From: an uncultured delta proteobacterium
GTDB taxonomy: Bacteria; Desulfobacterota; Binatia; Binatales; Binataceae
DNA length: 64,000 nt
Direction: 5' to 3'
Assembly (NCBI GenBank): GCA_963724765.1
Contig: CAVRVY010000003.1
Location: forward strand, 192,001-256,000
A model generated the notes under the pieces. That model worked only from the letters and a program-made list of their open reading frames with translations. It searched no databases and had not been told where the DNA came from. This document shows, one piece after another, positions 5,536 to 58,537 of this stretch. The translations under genes and the position numbers were made by a program. Within the stretch, counting starts at the first letter, position 1, and each line of letters begins with the position of its first letter.

Positions 5536-5613
5536 ATGGAAACACGGCTCTCGCAGAAAGAAAAAGAACTCGTCGTAGTGGGCGCCTCGGTCGCTGCGGG
5601 CTGTATTCCCTGT
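5536..5613 (+). pseudogene. carboxymuconolactone decarboxylase (CMD/AhpD-like) protein, truncated by IS
   Basis: AGGAG RBS; METRLSQKEKELVVVGASVAAGCIPC is cut exactly at an IS terminus. Confidence 0.7.
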
Positions 5614-6711
5614 TGTGCCTCCCAAAAACCTTATCCCGGATGACGCGCGGGTAAGCGTATGGTAATGAAGCGGCCGATGGTGGCGTTTCTGAGCCAGCTG
5701 CTGCTTGCTATCCGGTCGCGGTTCACGGGGCGCGCGCGGCTTGAGGCCGAGAATCTCCTCCTGCGCCAACAACTGGTAGTTCTGCGGCGCAAGTTCCCGA
5801 CGCGCGTGAGACTGTGGAACATCGATCGCTTGCTGTTGGTATGGCTGTATCGACTGTACCCGTCGCTCCTGGACGCGATCACCATCGTCCAGCCGGAGAC
5901 CGTGATCCGCTGGCACCGACGCGGTTTCCGCGCCTATTGGCGCTGGAAGTCCCGCCACGTCGGCGGCCGTCCAAGGATCGATTGCGAGATGCGAGCGCTG
6001 ATCCGGCGGGGATGAGCCGCGAGAACCCGCTGTGGGGCGCACCGCGGATCCACGGCGAATTGTTGATGCTTGGAATCGAGGTCGCTGAATCAACCGTCGG
6101 CAGGTATATGGTCTGGCGCCGCCGACCACCGTCCCAAGGTTGGAAGACTTTCCTGCGCAATCACGTTGGCGGCATCGCTTCGCTGGATCTGTTCGTCGTA
6201 CCCACGTCTCGTTCAAGCTGCTGTACGGCTTGGTGATCCTGCGTCACGCCCGCAGGCGACTAGTCGCGATCAGCGTCACTACCAATCCGACTGCCGAGTG
6301 GATCGCTGGACAGGTGACTGACGCTTTCCCCTGGGACGAAGCGCCGCGTCACCTGATTCGCGACCGCGACGGGGGCCTTCGGCCCAGCCTACACCCATCG
6401 CATTCGGGCAATGGGGATCCGCGATCATCCGACCGCGCCGCGTTCACCGTGGCAGAACGGCCACGTCGAGCGCCTCATCGGCTCGATCCGGCGCGAAAGC
6501 CTCGATCACTTGGTCGTGTTCGACGAAGCGCAGTTGCGTCGCGTTCTGAAGAATTACGTTTCTTATTACAATCGGGTCCGAACGCATCTCTCATTGGACA
6601 AGAATGCGCCGGATTTTCGACGCCCACAGAAGCTCGGCCCCATCGCAGCCATCTCAATTCTGGGTGGGCTGCACCACCAATATGTAAGGGTTTAGGTTTT
6701 GACTAAGCACA
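5614..6711 (+). mobile_element. IS481-like (integrase-core/rve) element, transposase frameshifted
   Basis: Ends TGTGCCTCCCAAAAACC and GGTTTTGACTAAGCACA; fragments ENPLWGAPRIHGEL, IRDRD, SPWQNGHVERLIGSIRRE, GGLHHQY. Confidence 0.88.
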
Positions 6712-24146: not shown

Positions 24147-24715
24147 TTCGAACGTTCGTTAGAATCTCACCAACAACAGTTCGTCTGCAAACGCAAAGAT
24201 CGAGCCCAGTTTTGATTCAAAGGCGTCTTCCAAGCAGCACGAATCGTTTCTTTCCCGCGTGGACCTCCAAACGGTTGAAAACAATATGGTTCCGTCAAAT
24301 GTTGCAAGCTGTCCTCCCCTGGAAAGTCCCGTTATGCAGCGGTGGGAAGGGAGGTGATGGTCTTACTTGTGGTTTCTCAAAAACCTAATCCGCGATGGTT
24401 TCGATGATAGCCTACCGTGCGTTGGCGATGCCGACAAGCGAATCATTCCTGGTGACCCGAAGCGGCGGGACCCCAACTCGCACCACGCTCCTGTTGGACG
24501 ATCGCGTGGCTTCTCAAAACCCGGTCCACGCAAAAAGCGACATCCTGATTCGCGCATGAGCGGGGTCTTGGTGAGGCCCGAGACTCCAGACGGCGGACTT
24601 CGCACCGCAACGGCGATCGGCAGACGATTGTTACGCGCTTGCTGGAGACCTGTCGCTACCGAAAACCTCGTCCGGGGTGACGGAGTGCAACAGCTGTTGT
24701 GCTTAGTCAAAACCT

Positions 24716-25616
24716 TGTATCTGCAAATCGGCGTATGAAGGTAGTAGCGGGCGCGGCAGACCGTTAAAACCTGGGTCGGCAGAGACCGTGGTTTAGCCAG
24801 GATCGTCGCGTCCGCTAAATCAAGCGTCCACAGCTCGAACAGTTGACGGGGCCGCGCGCAAGGCACGAGCCCGCATGTACAAGGACGGGTTAGGACGCGG
24901 AGTGAGGAGCAGCGGGGTGATGGGCGAAGAGGTGTATGTTGGGATCGATGTAAGCAAGACCGAGCTAGTGGTGGCGGTGCGCCCCAGCGGACAGAGCTTC
25001 ACGCTGGCCTACGATCGGGTGGGGCTGAAGCACTTGGTGGGTCGTTTGGGCAAACTGCAGCCCAAGCTGGTGGTGGTGGAAGCGACTGGCGGATTGCAAC
25101 GGCAGGTGGCGGCGGCGCTGTGGACCGCGGGGGTCGCGGTGGCAGCCGTCAATCCGAGCTGGGTACGGAGCTACGCGCGGGGTAGCGGACTATTGGCGAA
25201 GACCGACCGCATCGATGCCAAGCTACTCGCACTGTTTGCGCAACGCGAGCAACCCGCGCCGCGGCCGCCGCTGGATGCGGAGACCCAGGCGCTGCAGGAA
25301 TTGGCCACCCGGCGCGACCAATTGCTCGAGATGCGCGTGGCGGAGCAACAGCGGCTGCAGCGCGCAGGTCCGTAAAGAGTTGCGCCACCATATCGCTTAC
25401 CTAGAGGGCCGGATCACAGAGATCGACGATGACATCGATAAGTCCGTGCGGCGCTCCGCGGCCTGGCGGCGCAAGAGCGAGGTGCTCCGCAGCTTTCCGG
25501 GCGTGGGCAAGGTGTTCTGCGCCACGGTGCTGTCCAAGTTGCCGGAACTGGGCACGCTCAGCGGTAAAGCCGCCGCAGCCCTGGTCGGAATCGCTCCGTT
25601 CCCCGATGATAGCGGC
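24716..25616 (+). mobile_element. IS110-group element, truncated (5' non-coding region plus transposase from ATG 24920, frameshifted)
   Basis: YVGIDVSK, VEATG, AKTDRIDA, PGVG, PELG, PFPDDSG; begins CT-TGTAT directly after an IS481-like terminal repeat. Confidence 0.9.
24740..24900 (+). ncRNA. bridge RNA of the IS110 element (second copy on the minus strand, about 25983-26143)
   Basis: Stem TAGCGGGCGCGGC/GTCGCGTCCGCTA encloses TTAAAACCT and GGTTTAG; TACAAG is complementary to the element end CTTGTA. Confidence 0.78.
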
Positions 25617-26241
25617 GGCCGCGGCGCGGGTTGCTCGCGTTGCGCAAACAGTGCGAGTAGCTTGGCATCGATGCGGTCGGTCTTCGCCAATAGTCCGCTA
25701 CCCCGCGCGTAGCTCCGTACCCAGCTCGGATTGACGGCTGCCACCGCGACCCCCGCGGTCCACAGCGCCGCCGCCACCTGCCGTTGCAATCCGCCAGTCG
25801 CTTCCACCACCACCAGCTTGGGCTGCAGTTTGCCCAAACGACCCACCAAGTGCTTCAGCCCCACCCGATCGTAGGCCAGCGTGAAGCTCTGTCCGCTGGG
25901 GCGCACCGCCACCACTAGCTCGGTCTTGCTTACATCGATCCCAACATACACCTCTTCGCCCATCACCCCGCTGCTCCTCACTCCGCGTCCTAACCCGTCC
26001 TTGTACATGCGGGCTCGTGCCTTGCGCGCGGCCCCGTCAACTGTTCGAGCTGTGGACGCTTGATTTAGCGGACGCGACGATCCTGGCTAAACCACGGTCT
26101 CTGCCGACCCAGGTTTTAACGGTCTGCCGCGCCCGCTACTACCTTCATACGCCGATTTGCAGATACAAGGTTTTGACTAAGCACAGGGTATTTGACGTTG
26201 TGCTGATCCGCGATGTACATGTGAACAAAAGGAGACCATCG

Positions 26242-51952: not shown

Positions 51953-53548
51953 TTAGGGGAAGGTCTGTGGTTGCAACCCGCCGCGTATCGGCACGCCATC
52001 AAGGTGCGCCGCGCGCGAGTTCGCGCGCGCGAACATCAATACCCAGGGATCGCTGTAAATGAGCTTCCAGTCAGGCCGGCGTTCCATCAGCTCGCGCACC
52101 GGAGAGGCCGGCGTCATCAGCACGTAGTCGTGCGGATAAGCATCGAGCACCGCCGCCGCGCGCGGACTACCGAATTTGAAATCGAAATAGTCTCTGATCA
52201 CCGGCATCGAATAGGCAAAGTCGTAGCGGCCGTCGATAAACACTTTCGATGAGGGCGCCATCCGCCAGATGAGATAATCACCCCAGCTGAAGTCACCCAG
52301 CAGATTGCCGCGGAGCTGATGGGCCTGCATGAAATCGACCGCGCCCTTGGGAATTCCGAATTGCACGATCAGGGTGCGCGAAAAGAGCCCGCTCTGCAAA
52401 ACGATCAGCAGGGCGAGCGCGCCCACCAGGATCTCGTTGGAGGCCTGGCGCGGCGCGACCGCCGCCGGATCGCCGAAGCGCCGCTTCTCGAGCACCACTC
52501 CGGCGTGGCGGCATAAGGGCGCCACCGTCACGATCACCGCCAGCGCCATATTGCGCACCGAAAGCCAAGCGCCGAGCGCCATCAGCGCAGCGACCGCGAC
52601 CAGCGCCAAGTCATCGCCGCGCGGCCGGATCACAAAGCAGACCGCGAGCGCGAGCGGCAAGGCGATAACCACGGCGTAATTGAGCGCGGTCCCTGGTGAC
52701 TCGTGCCACTGCTGTACCATCTTGAACAGCAAGGGCTGCCATTCGCTAATGATCGCGCGCGTCATCGGATTCCGTATCGCCCGTGCAACCGCGAGCCAGT
52801 TGCCGAAGCCGTATGGATTGACCAGCGTCGCGGCCGCGCAGGCGAGCGTAACGCCACCCAGCCGAATCGACGTCCGCAAGCCTCGTCCCCGCACGAGATC
52901 CTCGAGCCCGCGAACTCCCGCATAGAGCGCCAGCACCGCCAGCCCGGCAGCCACGCCACCGTGAGTGTTCGCCCACAACGCGAAGATCGGAAGCGCGAGC
53001 CATATCGAGGCGCCGGACGGACGAAAACTGTCGCGCGCAAGCAGCACCATCAGCGCGCTCAACAGCATGAAGGTGAAGAGCTGCGGCCGAAACTGCATCA
53101 TCGGAATCAGCGCGACGCCGGCCACCGTCAGCACCGCGAGCTGAATCCGGACCGAGGCGCGGGTCTCTGCCGCAGCAAGCGCCATCAGCGACACGGTCAC
53201 CGCCGTCGCGGCAAACTTCATCAGCTTCAGCCCGACGACGCCGAAAGTGTCATAGGCGAGAGCGAGCAGCGCTTCGGCGAGCCATTCAGGATCGCGCCAG
53301 AGATATCCGGGGGCACTGTAGGACCAGGGATTTCGCGCCGGCGCGTGCCCGAGCGTGAGGACGAGCTGACCGAAGCGGATGTGGCCCCAGAGGTCGGGAT
53401 CGGCCCAACGGCCGACGTCGGTGACCGCGATGATAAAGGCGATGAGCGCCGGTGAGTAGCGCAGCAGCGAGACTGCGGCCGGCCTCGCGGCGCCGCTGAC
53501 TTCGAGTGCGCCGCCGCCGTTGTTCGCCGCGTCCGCTTCCATCCCCAC
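51953..53548 (-). CDS. GT-C-like polytopic membrane protein, paralogue 4
   Basis: DPDLWGH, EWL, RPQLF, WAN.HGG, NPYG, EWQP, WG.YLIW, FIDGRYD. Confidence 0.75.
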   Translation of the reverse strand: MGMEADAANNGGGALEVSGAARPAAVSLLRYSPALIAFIIAVTDVGRWADPDLWGHIRFGQLVLTLGHAPARNPWSYSAPGYLWRDPEWLAEALLALAYDTFGVVGLKLMKFAATAVTVSLMALAAAETRASVRIQLAVLTVAGVALIPMMQFRPQLFTFMLLSALMVLLARDSFRPSGASIWLALPIFALWANTHGGVAAGLAVLALYAGVRGLEDLVRGRGLRTSIRLGGVTLACAAATLVNPYGFGNWLAVARAIRNPMTRAIISEWQPLLFKMVQQWHESPGTALNYAVVIALPLALAVCFVIRPRGDDLALVAVAALMALGAWLSVRNMALAVIVTVAPLCRHAGVVLEKRRFGDPAAVAPRQASNEILVGALALLIVLQSGLFSRTLIVQFGIPKGAVDFMQAHQLRGNLLGDFSWGDYLIWRMAPSSKVFIDGRYDFAYSMPVIRDYFDFKFGSPRAAAVLDAYPHDYVLMTPASPVRELMERRPDWKLIYSDPWVLMFARANSRAAHLDGVPIRGGLQPQTFP

Positions 53549-53683
53549 CCCGCGGCATCATCCTAGCCGCGGCTCCGGGCTTCTCAAAGCCCCCGCCGGT
53601 CTACAGATGCTGCGTGAGATACCACGCGAGATGCCACGCGGAAGATCGCATCGGCGGTCAGCCGCGCCCCGCCCAGGGTGCGA

Positions 53684-55228
53684 CTACGGAAAGAGGTTCG
53701 GCCCGGAACTACCTTCTACCGGAAGGCCTTTTAGCTGCGCAGCGGGCGAGTTCGCACGTGCAAACAGGGCGGCGATTTTATCCCGATAAACGATCCGCCA
53801 TCCCGGTTGCGCCAGCATAAAATCGTAGGTCGCCGAGGAAGTTCTCAGCAGCACGAAGTCATGCGGATAGGCGTCCAGCACCGCGCCTGCACGCGGGCCC
53901 ACGAGGAAGAAGTCCAGGTAGTCGGCGAGCACCGCTTGCGGATAGACCATGTCGAAGCGGCTATCGACGAAGACTTTGGATTCGGGCGCGAGGTGAAAGA
54001 TCAGGTACTCGCCCCAGCCGAAATCGTCGAGCACGTTGCCATGCAGTCCGTGCGCCTGCATGAATTCGATCGCGCCCTGCGGCTGGGGATATCCGTTGGG
54101 CAGGCGCGGCGAGAAGAGCCCGCTCGCAAGCGCGATCACGAACGCGATCGCGCCGACCAGCATCTCATGGGACCGCTTTCGCGGCGCAGGCGCCGCTGGA
54201 TTGCCGAAACGCGTGGCCTCGAGTGCGAGTGCGGCGTGGCGGCACAGCGGAGTTATCGACGCGATCACCGCGAGTGCCATGTTGCGCACGGCCAGATACG
54301 CGGCGACTCCCATCATCGCCGCTATTACCAGCAGTGCGAGGTCGCCGCCGCGAGGCCTGAGCGCGAAGCACAGCGCCAGCGCGGCGAACGGCACGATCAC
54401 GAGCGCGAAGTTGACCGCGGTCTTAGGCGACTTGTGCCACTCCTCGGCGATCTTGAACAGCAACGGCTGCCATTCGCTGACCATCGCGCGCGTAAGCGGA
54501 TTGCCCAGCGTATGCATCACCGTGAACCAGTTGCCGATACCGTCGGGATTGAGCAGCGTCGCGAGCACGCAAGCCGCGGTCACGCCGCCAAGACGCGTCG
54601 CGCGCTGAAGACCGTCACCCGCCGCCAAATCCTCGATCACGATCACCGCTGTATACACCGCGAGCACTGCGAGACCGACGAAGAAACCGCCGTGCAGATT
54701 GGCCCACAGCGCGAAGATCGGGATAGCGAGCCATAGCCGCCCCGCATGCCGATAACTGTCGCGGGCGAGCAGCAGAAGCAGCGCGCTCAGCGCAACGAAG
54801 TCGAACAATTGCGGCCGAAACTGCATCATCGGCGCGATCGCGACCGCGCCCGTCGTCAGCACCACCATTTGCAGCGGTATCGGCGCGCCAGTCTCGGCCG
54901 CGCCCATCGCCAGCAGCGTGATGGTCGCCGCCGTGGCGGCAAGTTTCATCAGCTTGAGCCCGACCACTCCAAGCGCGCCCCAGCAGAGCGCCAGCACGAC
55001 TTCGGAGAGCCATTCGTGGTCGCGCCAGGGCAGGCCGGTTGCGCTGTAGGAGTAGATGTCGCGCGGCGGCAGACGGCCGTGCATCAGGATGAAGCGGCCG
55101 AAAACCAGGTGGCCCCAGAGGTCAGGGTCAGCCCAGCGACCGGCGTCGGCGACTACGATAATGAACGCGAGGAATGCCGGCGAGTAACGCGGTAGCGAAA
55201 GCTTTCGCACGCGCCGCGAGGATGTCAT
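53684..55228 (-). CDS. GT-C-like polytopic membrane protein, paralogue 3
   Basis: Same motifs; ATGA overlap with the upstream paralogue. Confidence 0.75.
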   Translation of the reverse strand: MTSSRRVRKLSLPRYSPAFLAFIIVVADAGRWADPDLWGHLVFGRFILMHGRLPPRDIYSYSATGLPWRDHEWLSEVVLALCWGALGVVGLKLMKLAATAATITLLAMGAAETGAPIPLQMVVLTTGAVAIAPMMQFRPQLFDFVALSALLLLLARDSYRHAGRLWLAIPIFALWANLHGGFFVGLAVLAVYTAVIVIEDLAAGDGLQRATRLGGVTAACVLATLLNPDGIGNWFTVMHTLGNPLTRAMVSEWQPLLFKIAEEWHKSPKTAVNFALVIVPFAALALCFALRPRGGDLALLVIAAMMGVAAYLAVRNMALAVIASITPLCRHAALALEATRFGNPAAPAPRKRSHEMLVGAIAFVIALASGLFSPRLPNGYPQPQGAIEFMQAHGLHGNVLDDFGWGEYLIFHLAPESKVFVDSRFDMVYPQAVLADYLDFFLVGPRAGAVLDAYPHDFVLLRTSSATYDFMLAQPGWRIVYRDKIAALFARANSPAAQLKGLPVEGSSGPNLFP

Positions 55229-56850
55229 GGAAATGCGCATGGCAGAGCGGGCGTGGTTGCGGGTAAGTCGGGCAGGCTTGCCGTGGGGGCGCTCGCGCGT
55301 GCGTAAAGGAGTGCGTCGTCGTCGCGGTAGAGCAGTTTCCAATCACGCTGCCGCACCATCAGGCGGCGCGCGGGCGCACGCGACCCGATCAGCACGAAGT
55401 CGTGAGGATAGGAATCGAGCACCGCGCCGGCGCCCGACTGGTCGAAATAAAATTCGAGATAGTCGCGGATGACCTTGAACGGATAGACGGTGTCGTAACG
55501 GCCGTCGATAAAGACCTTGTCCTGCGGCGCGGCGTGCCAGATGAGATACTCGCCCCATCCGAACTCGCCCAACACATTGCCATGCAGGCCATGCGCGCTC
55601 ATGAAGGCAAGCGCCGCCCAAGGATAGGCACGGTCCGGCACAAGCCGGCGCGAAAACAGTCCGCCGCGGAGGGCCATCACGCAGGCCAGCGCAAGCATCG
55701 CGAAATGACTCGCCGGGGACCACGGCGCCACGGGCAGACCGGCCCCGGCGCGCCGCGCGCGCAGCATCGCGAGATGGCGCGCGAGCGGTCCGCTCACCGC
55801 CAACGCGGCCAGCGCCATATTGCGCACGGAAAGAAAGGCCGCGAGCGCCATCATTGCGGCCACCGCGACCAGCGGCAGATCGTCCGCGCGCGGCGCCGCC
55901 GCCAATACGACCGCCAGTGCGGCAACCATCGCTATCACAACAAGATAGAGCACCACGCCCGAGGGCGCGGAATGCCACTGCGCCAGCATCGCCCACCAAA
56001 GCGGCTGCCAATCATTTACCACATTGCGCGTGTAGGGATTGCGCAGCGCGTGCGCCACCGTCTCCCACATCCCGGCGCCGTAAGGATTGATCAGCGTGGC
56101 CGCGGCGGCGGCCACGGTAAGCAGCGATAATTTCGCCCCGCGCCACCATCCCGCGCCCGCGGCGAGATCGCCAACCGCTGCGACGGCCGAGTAGAGCGCC
56201 AGCGTGGCGATACCGATGAAGAAGCCGCCGTGCAGATTCGCCCACAGCGCCATCAGCGGCACCGCCAGCCAGAGCCGCGCACCGCCGCGCCGGTAATTGT
56301 CGCGCGCAAGCAGGGCGAGTAGCGCACCCAGCAAAGCGAAGCTGAACATCTGCGGCCGCAACTGCGCCTGGAGCAGGAATCCGCACGCCGCCGCGAACAG
56401 GACCGCAAACTGGATGGTGGGCGGCGCGCCTGTTGAGGCCTCGGTGTCGGCGACAAACAGCAACGCCGCCGCCGTGCAGGCGAACTTCCACAGCTTGAGC
56501 CCGGCCACGCCGGCAGCGTTGTAGGCGAACGTCATCACGACTTCGGCCAGCCACTCGTGATCGCGCCATCGATGACCCGCCGCAGAGTAAGAATATATAT
56601 CAAAATGTAGCAGATGGCGTCCGGCGATGAAGGCCTCGCCGAAGCGCAGATGGCCCCAAAGGTCGGGATCGGTATGGCGGTTGGAATCGGCGAGCAGGAT
56701 CGCGATCAGCACGGCGGCGGGCGCATAGCGCAAGAGCGAGCACGCCGGCCGCACAATCTCAGTGCGCGCCGCACGCCGGTGAGTTGATGATTCGGGTGAT
56801 GGTTGGGGCCGTGCGTCGGAAGCTGCCATGCACTCGCTCGCAGCCTTCAC
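55225..56850 (-). CDS. GT-C-like polytopic membrane protein, paralogue 2
   Basis: Same motifs. Confidence 0.75.
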   Translation of the reverse strand: MKAASECMAASDARPQPSPESSTHRRAARTEIVRPACSLLRYAPAAVLIAILLADSNRHTDPDLWGHLRFGEAFIAGRHLLHFDIYSYSAAGHRWRDHEWLAEVVMTFAYNAAGVAGLKLWKFACTAAALLFVADTEASTGAPPTIQFAVLFAAACGFLLQAQLRPQMFSFALLGALLALLARDNYRRGGARLWLAVPLMALWANLHGGFFIGIATLALYSAVAAVGDLAAGAGWWRGAKLSLLTVAAAAATLINPYGAGMWETVAHALRNPYTRNVVNDWQPLWWAMLAQWHSAPSGVVLYLVVIAMVAALAVVLAAAPRADDLPLVAVAAMMALAAFLSVRNMALAALAVSGPLARHLAMLRARRAGAGLPVAPWSPASHFAMLALACVMALRGGLFSRRLVPDRAYPWAALAFMSAHGLHGNVLGEFGWGEYLIWHAAPQDKVFIDGRYDTVYPFKVIRDYLEFYFDQSGAGAVLDSYPHDFVLIGSRAPARRLMVRQRDWKLLYRDDDALLYARASAPTASLPDLPATTPALPCAFP

Positions 56851-56884
56851 GCTACAGGCTGCAAGCGGCGCCGCAAAGCTGCGT

Positions 56885-58537
56885 CTAGGGAAATCCGCCC
56901 GGATGCGCGGCGCCGGTCACGGGCAGGTCCGGCAGGCCGGCCGCAGGTGCACTCGCGCGTGCGTAAAGAAGCGACTCGTCGTCGCGATAAAGCAACTTCC
57001 AGTCATGTCGCCGCTCCATCAAATGACGTGCTGGAGCAGCGGTAGGGATAAGCACAAAATCATGCGGATAGGCATCGAGAACGTGAGCCCCGCCCGGCAG
57101 GTCGAATCGAAACAGCAGGTAATCGCGGACCACGTCCGGCGGGTACACAGTATCGTTGCGGCCGTCGATAAAAACCTTGTCGGCCGGGAAGGTGTGCCAG
57201 ATGAGGTATTGGCCCCATCCGAAATCGCAGAGCAGGTTGCCATGCAACTGGTGTGCACGCATGAAGCTAACCGCGCCCGCGGGATAGGCCTTGTCCTCTG
57301 CAAGCCGGCTCGAAAACAGGCCGCCCTGAAGCATCAGTACACCGCATACCGCCAGCATCAGCCACTGGTTCACCGACCGCGAGTCAGGCGCGGGTGCACC
57401 GTGGCGGCGGCGCTCGCTCAGCACCGCAAGATGACGTGCGAGCGGACCGCTCACCGCGATGACCGCGAGCGCCATATTGCGCACAGACTGGAACGCCGCA
57501 AGCGACATGAACGCGGCGATCGCGACCAGCGGCAGATCTCCCGCGCGCGGCGACGCGACGAACGCGGCCGCAAGCGCCGCAATCAATCCGATCACCGCAA
57601 GATAGATCAGGACGCCGGAGAACCCCTGATGCCACTGCACGGCCAACGCGTGAGTGAGCGGCTGCCAATCGTTGACGATGCCGCGCGTGTAGGGATTGCG
57701 AAGCGCGTAGACGACCGCCTTCCAGATCCCAATGCCGTAAGGATTGAGGAGCGTCGCCGCGGTGGCGGCGAGCGTGACCAGGCCGAGCCGGATCGCGCGG
57801 CGCAACCCCTCGCCAGCGGCGAGGTCGCACGACGCCACGGCGCCCGTATAGAGCGCGAGCGTCACGATTCCCGCAACGAAGCCGCCGTGCGGATTCGCCC
57901 ATAGCGCCATCAGCGGCACCGCCAGCCAGATCGTCCCCCCGCGCCGGTAATTGTCGCGCGCGAGCAGCGCGACGAGGGCGCTTAGGCAAACCAGCGTGAA
58001 CATCTGCGGCCGGAATTGCGTCTGCAGTATCAGCCCAACTGAGGCCACGAGCAGCACCGGAAGTTGAATCGAAGGCGGCGCGCCGGTTGCGGCCTCGGCG
58101 TCGGCGATGAACAGAACCGTGAGCGCGGTGAAGACGAATTTCCACAGTTTGAGACCGACCACGCCCGCGGCGTTGTACACGGCCGCCATCACCACCTCGG
58201 CAAGCCATTCATGATCCCGCCAGAGATGGCCCGCGGCGGAGTAGGAATAAGGATCGCGATCGATCAGATGGCGTTTGGCGATAAATGCCTGGCCGAATCG
58301 GACATGGCCCCAGAGATCGGGGTCTGTGTGGCGATTGGAGTCGGCGATCAGAATCGCCAGCAGAACCACCGCGGGCGAATAGCGCAAGAGCGAATTGCGC
58401 GTGAGCCGGGACGCGGTGGCGCCCGGCGAGCCACGCTCAGCCGCGTCCGTCGGCGCGAAAGCCGCCGCTGCCGGAGCGCCGTTATAGGCGATCATGTTCG
58501 GCGGTGCTGCCGCCCGCCCCTCCCCGCTGGTCTTCAT
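56885..58537 (-). CDS. GT-C-like polytopic membrane protein, paralogue 1
   Basis: Same motifs. Confidence 0.75.
   Translation of the reverse strand: MKTSGEGRAAAPPNMIAYNGAPAAAAFAPTDAAERGSPGATASRLTRNSLLRYSPAVVLLAILIADSNRHTDPDLWGHVRFGQAFIAKRHLIDRDPYSYSAAGHLWRDHEWLAEVVMAAVYNAAGVVGLKLWKFVFTALTVLFIADAEAATGAPPSIQLPVLLVASVGLILQTQFRPQMFTLVCLSALVALLARDNYRRGGTIWLAVPLMALWANPHGGFVAGIVTLALYTGAVASCDLAAGEGLRRAIRLGLVTLAATAATLLNPYGIGIWKAVVYALRNPYTRGIVNDWQPLTHALAVQWHQGFSGVLIYLAVIGLIAALAAAFVASPRAGDLPLVAIAAFMSLAAFQSVRNMALAVIAVSGPLARHLAVLSERRRHGAPAPDSRSVNQWLMLAVCGVLMLQGGLFSSRLAEDKAYPAGAVSFMRAHQLHGNLLCDFGWGQYLIWHTFPADKVFIDGRNDTVYPPDVVRDYLLFRFDLPGGAHVLDAYPHDFVLIPTAAPARHLMERRHDWKLLYRDDESLLYARASAPAAGLPDLPVTGAAHPGGFP

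Follow-up and report, generated by a model that had tools for sequence, protein, structure and literature searches.

The 64,000-nucleotide stretch analysed here (the window; positions 192,001 to 256,000 of contig CAVRVY010000003.1, from an uncultured delta proteobacterium) contains an insertion sequence (IS) of the IS110 family that lies within the right terminal repeat of an IS481-like element, its host. Very probably, the left end of the IS110 element encodes a bridge RNA programmed for the right terminal repeat of this other IS. The target loop of the RNA would be programmed for the 14-bp sequence TCAAAAC-CT-AAACC, 16–18 bp inside the host right terminal inverted repeat. The donor loop would recognize the element's own joined ends, with the left donor guide (LDG) ACAGUUG equalling the right end ...ACAGTTG-CT and the right donor guide (RDG) GUACAAG matching CT-TGTAT.... 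The recombinase would then swap strands at the CT cores, and the element would land at a single position with a single orientation, so that it splits the inner conserved block of the host's repeat and leaves the TGT tip where it is. An RNA-guided insertion of this kind, just inside the host end and with retention of the TGT terminus, had been proposed in an initial annotation made from the letters of the window, and the guides, the junctions and the covariation described below support it.

The outer 18 nt of the host right repeat (TGTGCTTAGTCAAAACCT) occupy positions 24698–24715 and the IS110 left end (TGTATCTG) follows directly from 24716, which confirms that the element starts right behind the IS481-like terminal repeat. 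The intact host end is likewise the one that had been named, the reverse complement of window positions 6688–6711 reading TGTGCTTAGTCAAAACCTAAACC, and all the strings on which the initial annotation was built (TGTGCTTAGTCAAAACCT, TGTATCTG, TTAAAACCT, GGTC/GACC, GGTTTAG and TACAAG) were recovered in place. The parts of the locus, including the predicted left and right target guides (LTG and RTG), are as follows.

5613..6711, plus strand: host IS481-like element, full length and frameshifted, with an unoccupied right-end target
24698..24715, plus strand: outer 18 nt of the host right terminal inverted repeat (TGTGCTTAGTCAAAACCT), corresponding to the left target and CT core and the same as in the intact ends at 6694–6711 of the window (minus strand)
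24716..24916, plus strand: IS110 left end, the putative bridge-RNA gene (alignment and consensus fold)
24750–24762 with 24801–12, plus strand: target-loop stem (consensus fold)
24764–24772, plus strand: predicted LTG TTAAAACCT (as RNA UUAAAACCU), matching TCAAAACCT at 8/9 positions
24774–24777 with 24784–24787, plus strand: target-loop hairpin GGTC/GACC (consensus fold)
24790–24796, plus strand: predicted RTG GGTTTAG (as RNA GGUUUAG), exact complement of CTAAACC (7/7)
24827–37 with 24886–95, plus strand: donor-loop stem (consensus fold)
24839–24845, plus strand: predicted LDG ACAGTTG, matching the element's own right end
24877–24883, plus strand: predicted RDG GTACAAG (TACAAG at 24878–24883), matching the element's own left end
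24917..25375, plus strand: 5' part of the IS110 recombinase gene, with the DEDD/RuvC-like domain (PF01548, 84.1 bits)
25376..25610, plus strand: recombinase gene continued in another frame to the conserved Ser-Gly (open reading frame 25215..25712; alignment to IS621)
25611..26185, minus strand: inverted duplicate arm with host-IS tip (26168–26185), second bridge-RNA gene and recombinase 5' part, 100% complementary over 575 nt

The window copy of the IS110 element is dead. It is frameshifted, truncated, without a right end and inside a perfect 575-nt fold-back, and it cannot move. It forms the left arm of this inverted repeat (24698–25272, paired with 25611–26185, with 338 nt between), and the left junction and the guide region are thus present twice, in inverted orientation, while the IS110 right end is absent. 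The recombinase frame is closed by a TAA stop at 25373–25375 through the loss of one 8-nt tandem-repeat unit relative to the copies on contig C4 of this genome and in the related genome G014, and a public contig of run X3 has 8 additional letters after 25357. The gene is then cut by the fold-back junction just behind the Ser-Gly.

Two further copies were found by BLAST of the genome's four contigs. The one on contig C4 (C4:1580527–1579273; 1255 bp with one CT counted in; identity to the window copy 91%) is full length and lies inside the right end of an IS481-like element. Its left junction reads ...TGTGCTTAGTCAAAACCT|TGTATCTG... and its right junction ...CAACACGGTTGCT|AAACCCTTACATATTGG (the right end is also given as ACGGTTGCT), followed by the body of the host IS. 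The overall layout is TCAAAACCT|IS110|AAACC, the empty site being TCAAAACCTAAACC, and the C4 copy (complete locus G000 C4:1579272–1580545, or L001 2773–4046, minus strand) therefore supplies the junction that is missing in the window, with AAACC on the right exactly as predicted. The element has neither terminal inverted repeats nor a target duplication, and the CT core stands at each of its two junctions. The other copy (C3:45445–45160, locus L002) is a 286-bp stump fused to the host-IS interior at a 13-nt stretch, GCGGTGCGCCCCA, that is common to IS110 and host IS, which on sequence grounds indicates that the two elements recombine via short homology.

The recurrence of the site and the agreement between guides and flanks were assessed in relatives from 41 genomes of this class, of which 14 gave a match, from genome contigs (10 loci) and from metagenome contigs (24 loci); after four repeat-fetched loci had been dropped, 21 distinct left and 19 distinct right junctions were available. 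Sixteen of the 21 left junctions belong to elements with the RTG GGTTTAG, and 15 of these 16 lie directly behind a TGT...AAA(A)CCT IS end, in at least 10 sequence variants with differing outer flanks. The exception, L060, has a mutated tip, yet still has the IS body to its right. All 13 GTTGCT-type right junctions fall in IS ends (nine AAACCC plus IS body, one AAAATCC and three AATCCG), where the AATCCG ends represent a second IS481-like subfamily with a degenerate transposase gene adjoining; none of the 13 lies in the main host left-end type (CATCC, TATCC). The tabulation of flanks that had been suggested as a check thus returned other copies at the same kind of site. Three close relatives with other guides (L039, L051 and L052) lie outside IS ends, and their left flanks match their own LTGs, as in L051 with the guide UUGUAACCU and the flank GTGTAACCT. 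Seven diverged lineages (~65–68% DNA identity) occupy REP-like hairpins (REP, repetitive extragenic palindrome) or other sites, the closest of them (G020, G024 and G006) being located in REP-like hairpins of the form CT|CTCCC...GGGAGAG.

Guide–target covariation across homologues, the other check that had been called for, was found for both target guides. The five non-core bases of the RTG match the right flank in 8/8 elements, which together carry six different guides (GGUUU, GGGAG, GGGGG, GUCGA, CUAGC and CGCUC), compared with a mean of 1.35 and a maximum of 4 matches in non-cognate pairs (n = 52). For the LTG, the best-register identity over 9 nt averages 6.25 (range 4–8) in 12 cognate pairs versus 4.22 in 120 non-cognate pairs, of which three reach 7 and none reaches 8. 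The guide matches are unlikely to be due to chance: when the 204-nt non-coding region was mononucleotide-shuffled 200,000 times, a match of at least 8/9 to TCAAAACCT occurred together with an exact GGTTTAG in 17 shuffles, and in only three did the pair stand in the same order within 40 nt. The second loop agrees with the element's own ends. By eye, the LDG and the right end agree over all 7 nt in 8/9 lineages, the two variable positions of the motif AC[A/G]GT[T/C]G changing with the right end, and the RDG GUACAAG pairs with CTTGTAT with one G–T pair, in line with the earlier suggestion that TACAAG complements the donor end.

The RNA structure was derived from the aligned non-coding regions of 12 diverse homologues by RNAalifold and pair counts. 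The consensus fold comprises a basal stem and an internal loop that a short hairpin closes, then another stem and another internal loop, and hence contains both internal loops found in the IS621-type layout that had been recognized in the 5' non-coding region; for IS621, a bridge RNA with this pair of loops is described at the 5' non-coding end (Durrant 2024, PMC11208160), and the mechanism outlined above follows that work and Hiraizumi 2024 (PMC11208158). Paired cells amount to 95.5%, versus 36–42% when the partners are slid by 1–3 columns, and both-side changes occur at nine pairs versus one to four in the slid versions. For four of five measures, none of 500 shuffles attains the observed values. 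The RNA is presumably produced and would guide the recombinase.

Sequence comparisons place the element in the IS110 family and its IS110 group. The family call of the initial annotation is borne out by PF01548 (84.1 bits for the window fragment and 77.1 for the C4 copy; cutoff 29), PF02371 (62.6 bits for the C4 copy; cutoff 21.3; the domain is incomplete in the window, where it is cut right behind the Ser-Gly) and the NCBIfam model NF033542 (213.9 bits; cutoff 140). The 319-aa protein of the C4 copy aligns over its full length with the solved structures of the IS621 transposase (8wt6_A, E 1.3e-31) and ISCro4 (9t56_A, E 1.9e-32). The catalytic residues described for IS621 are D11, E60, D102, D105 and S241 (Hiraizumi 2024, PMC11208158), and in the G014 homologue the D, E, D, D and S are all matched, its Ser-Gly corresponding to S241–G242. 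Hallmarks of the IS1111 group were not seen: the guide region lies 5' of the gene, and none of the 25 longest inverted pairs connects the two ends of the IS110 element, as subterminal inverted repeats would.

The host element measures 1094–1099 bp and has a single open reading frame of 344 aa with an rve_3 domain (54 bits). Its ends (left repeat TGTGCCTCCCGAAAACCT.ATCC, right repeat TGTGCTTAGTCAAAACCTAAACC) have the form TGT...ACA with imperfect terminal repeats. IS481 elements make a direct target duplication of several bp. Among the NCBIfam models, IS481 is the best match of the host transposase (96.4 bits versus a cutoff of 224), ahead of IS3 (84.3 versus 160), and no target duplication was visible in seven copies, the longest direct repeats being 0, 0, 3, 0, 0, 0 and 2 nt. 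Because the IS481 score is below its cutoff and target duplications are not visible, 'IS481-like' is used as a fair label for the element rather than as a proven membership. In a simple self-comparison of the genome (loci of at least 600 bp), the host is the largest repeat family, with 10 loci versus 8 and 8 for the next two, which agrees with its earlier description as the most abundant IS. A 16-mer of the host end occurs six times in the window at up to three mismatches, versus 0.20 expected. Genome-wide there are seven perfect unoccupied TCAAAACCTAAACC sites and five with one mismatch, all in IS ends, next to four occupied left junctions (two of them the arms in the window) and one right junction. 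The insertion point between CCT and AAACC is the middle of the sole block common to the left and right host repeats (AAAACCT.A.CC), and insertion places 1.25 kb between the TGT tip and the remainder of the host element. The interrupted end has likely lost its function, and disabling of the host IS by insertion, as had been envisaged, is plausible from the sequence.

Several observations weigh against a guided insertion by this RNA. The 12 perfect and one-mismatch targets just mentioned are unused in the genome. No LTG matches the C at target position −8, and three cognate LTG pairs, those of G020 and G024 at both site types, reach only 4–5/9; these may, by analogy, be 'half-match' insertions such as a 2026 preprint describes for IS621. 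The LDG positions facing the core are, by eye, not CT in most of the clade, unlike IS621. Folded alone, the window sequence does not stand out (z = −1.57; 14/200 shuffles fold at least as well), and support for the bridge-RNA structure comes from comparison, not from folding energy. Rfam returned no family at threshold, with weak antisense sX15 matches and two chance microRNA matches below it, and neither a sigma-70-like promoter nor a terminator was found in a scan of 24600–25000, i.e. in the integrated context. Contigs of the RNA-library run X17 cover only 24699–24810 and say nothing on transcription or strand. Finally, the recombinase of the C4 copy reads KTDRIEA, in which E replaces the fourth DEDD aspartate, a change unique among 43 motif instances (the other 42 are KTD..DA, the window N-terminal fragment having KTDRIDA); the position corresponds to D105 of IS621, whose alanine mutant is inactive (Hiraizumi 2024, PMC11208158). 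In addition, the C4 copy has the right end ACGGTTG, which differs at one position from the copy's own LDG ACAGUUG (6/7). The sole complete copy may therefore be impaired and the lineage inactive in this genome, and the 12 good targets left unoccupied would agree with this.

Two other explanations of the locus were weighed. If the 18 nt TGTGCTTAGTCAAAACCT belonged to the IS110 element itself, or if the guide matches were coincidental, no targeting would need to be invoked, and the homology among the three copies of this genome does begin at 24698, not at 24716. The same 18 nt, however, run on into AAACC... at the seven perfect empty IS ends and vary in other genomes (at least 10 variants) where the IS110 left end is constant; diverged relatives in REP-like hairpins also begin with TGTAT right behind CT. 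The empty sites and both C4 junctions contradict this explanation, both matches together are rare among the shuffles (17/200,000), and we regard it as extremely improbable. That the recombinase protein reads the site or the DNA structure of the repeat directly, the RNA complementarity being incidental, is very unlikely: six RTGs are each perfect for their own flank in elements whose recombinases share ~65–68% DNA identity, and reprogramming by RNA change was shown experimentally for IS621 (Durrant 2024, PMC11208160). A preprint on ISPpu10 reports that structure adds to RNA pairing, which lends direct recognition some support.

The initial annotation had further suggested that the IS110 element could hitchhike on its host, i.e. 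that a single ancient insertion into a host-IS end was followed by spread of the composite through the host transposase. Both ends of the fold-back stop exactly at the host TGT tip with unrelated flanks, and the C4 and C3:45k copies are identical over 286/286 positions of tip plus IS110 (193/197 in the host part) with different outer flanks, which speaks for such spread. The relatives argue otherwise. The IS110 bodies of L049 and L060 are 99.05% identical, whereas their host flanks are 88.3% identical; the same two are 98.9% identical to L006, whose host end is from a different subfamily; and L037 and L049 share 96.3% in the IS110 part versus 84.8% in the host flank. Because near-identical IS110 bodies sit in far more diverged host ends, the insertions are, by this comparison, independent and not co-carried, and the hitchhiking idea is unsupported. 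In addition, the guides match the site and change together with it in relatives, no searched genome has several composite copies (the matches in relatives are single-copy), and the fold-back is as simply explained by a deletion between two inverted composites at an 11-nt microhomology. We therefore hold hitchhiking to be quite improbable.

The microhomology in question, AGCGGCGGCCG (25611–25621), lies at the fold-back junction, and the same stretch occurs inverted inside one intact gene copy. The right flank of the fold-back equals the upstream region of a gene without insertion in G002 and G014. A single replication template switch was ruled out as the origin of the structure, the right flank not being the reverse complement of the left. 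Deletion between inverted IS::IS110 composites is the simplest alternative, and the ending of both arms at the host tip is the only hint of movement by the host transposase. In the public read sets, of which the best contains 0.59 of the sampled words, none of the contigs examined spans the junction at 25611. It also seems unlikely that the lineage is, in this soil-bacterial group, a dedicated hyperparasite of IS481-like elements for which the interrupted end is still a substrate of the host transposase. Were this so, the host enzyme would have moved the tip–IS110/IS110–tip palindrome of the window as a pseudo-composite, and a guided element would both cripple and ride its host IS.

The closest known systems are IS621 and ISCro4 (PDB 9t56). 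The IS621 left end begins with TGTAT, as does that of the element described here. The recombinase aligns over its full length with DEDD and Ser-Gly in register, the 5' non-coding end holds the bridge RNA with its two internal loops, the LTG is like the top strand, the RTG is the reverse complement of core plus right target, the core is CT, and terminal inverted repeats are lacking. The differences are that IS621 targets a REP and this element the terminal repeat of another IS, that the RTG has 7 nt instead of the 4 nt given for IS621 (Durrant 2024, PMC11208160), that the LDG positions facing the core are mostly not CT, and that a conserved right-end hairpin of ~70 nt is present, which also stands alone in a related genome. 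A second parallel is offered by IS4321 and IS5075 of the IS1111 group, which reportedly, in work by Partridge and Hall from 2003, target the terminal repeats of the Tn21 family. These are likewise DEDD elements with site- and orientation-specific insertion inside the terminal repeat of another transposon. Their host is a Tn3-family transposon, in contrast to the IS481-like IS here, and they belong to a group with subterminal inverted repeats and a seekRNA from the 3' non-coding region (Siddiquee 2024), whereas this element has its bridge RNA on the 5' side and the 25 longest inverted pairs include no such repeats. IS110-family elements are known to select multi-copy repeats such as REPs (Durrant 2024, PMC11208160). 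A multi-copy repeat is the target of this lineage as it is of ISPpu9, ISPpu10 and other REP-targeting members, from which this lineage differs in having been naturally retargeted from REP-like hairpins to an IS end.

The targeting of one mobile element by another is thus already known for the IS110/IS1111 family and is not a new mechanism, and knowledge of the mechanism is unchanged by this element. The literature searched yielded no account of an IS110-group element directed at an IS481-like end, and the supplementary target tables of Durrant and Siddiquee 2024 may list one. The locus provides a clean natural example of probable RNA-guided insertion into the terminal repeat of another mobile element. 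Its relatives combine one RNA scaffold with at least six right-target guides, each fitting its own site (REP-like hairpins and IS ends), and offer a useful natural set of reprogramming data on bridge recombinases. They also bear on the choice of harmless multi-copy landing sites and possibly on the mutual restraint of mobile elements.

Some further observations concern the non-coding parts of the IS110 element. The Rfam matches to sX15 (RF02234), a Xanthomonadaceae small RNA, score 24.5 and 28.8 bits versus a gathering score of 55 and cover the whole model on the reverse complement of the bridge RNA in two diverged elements, and sX15 may be an antisense annotation of an IS110 bridge RNA. The matches lie as follows.

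24739–24880, minus strand, and 26003–26144, plus strand: sX15 antisense matches in the window (Rfam, below threshold)
L016 1351–1493, minus strand: sX15 antisense match in a relative (Rfam, below threshold)

In a circle, the right end, the core and the first base of the left end would read, by eye, TTGCTT, with TATGAA 17 nt on (24734–24739), which may form a junction promoter. The right end forms a conserved nested hairpin of ~70 nt with perfect arms of 14 nt and 10 nt (L001 2790–2863 for the C4 copy). This hairpin is ~90% identical in G020 (L022 and L032), where no IS110 recombinase gene was found within ~1.5 kb on each side of these two copies, and a DNA search lists at least nine places with it in that genome. 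A 158-nt internally deleted IS110 derivative (L013 1520–1677, from G011) retains its two ends and portions of both guide loops, is inserted in the IS-end variant TGTCCCTGGTCAAACACCT|...|AATCCGG and has a look like that of miniature inverted-repeat transposable elements.

Two features of the window remain to be mentioned. Four IS-end-like sequences in the same orientation are stacked at 24368–24715 (~24368, TGTGGTTTCTCAAAAACCTAATCC; ~24510; ~24658, TGTCGCTACCGAAAACCTCGTCC; and 24698), which suggests that IS481-like elements insert again and again just within each other's ends. At 52481–58235, four tandem units of ~1.55–1.73 kb are 61–78% alike and possibly represent a paralogous gene array.

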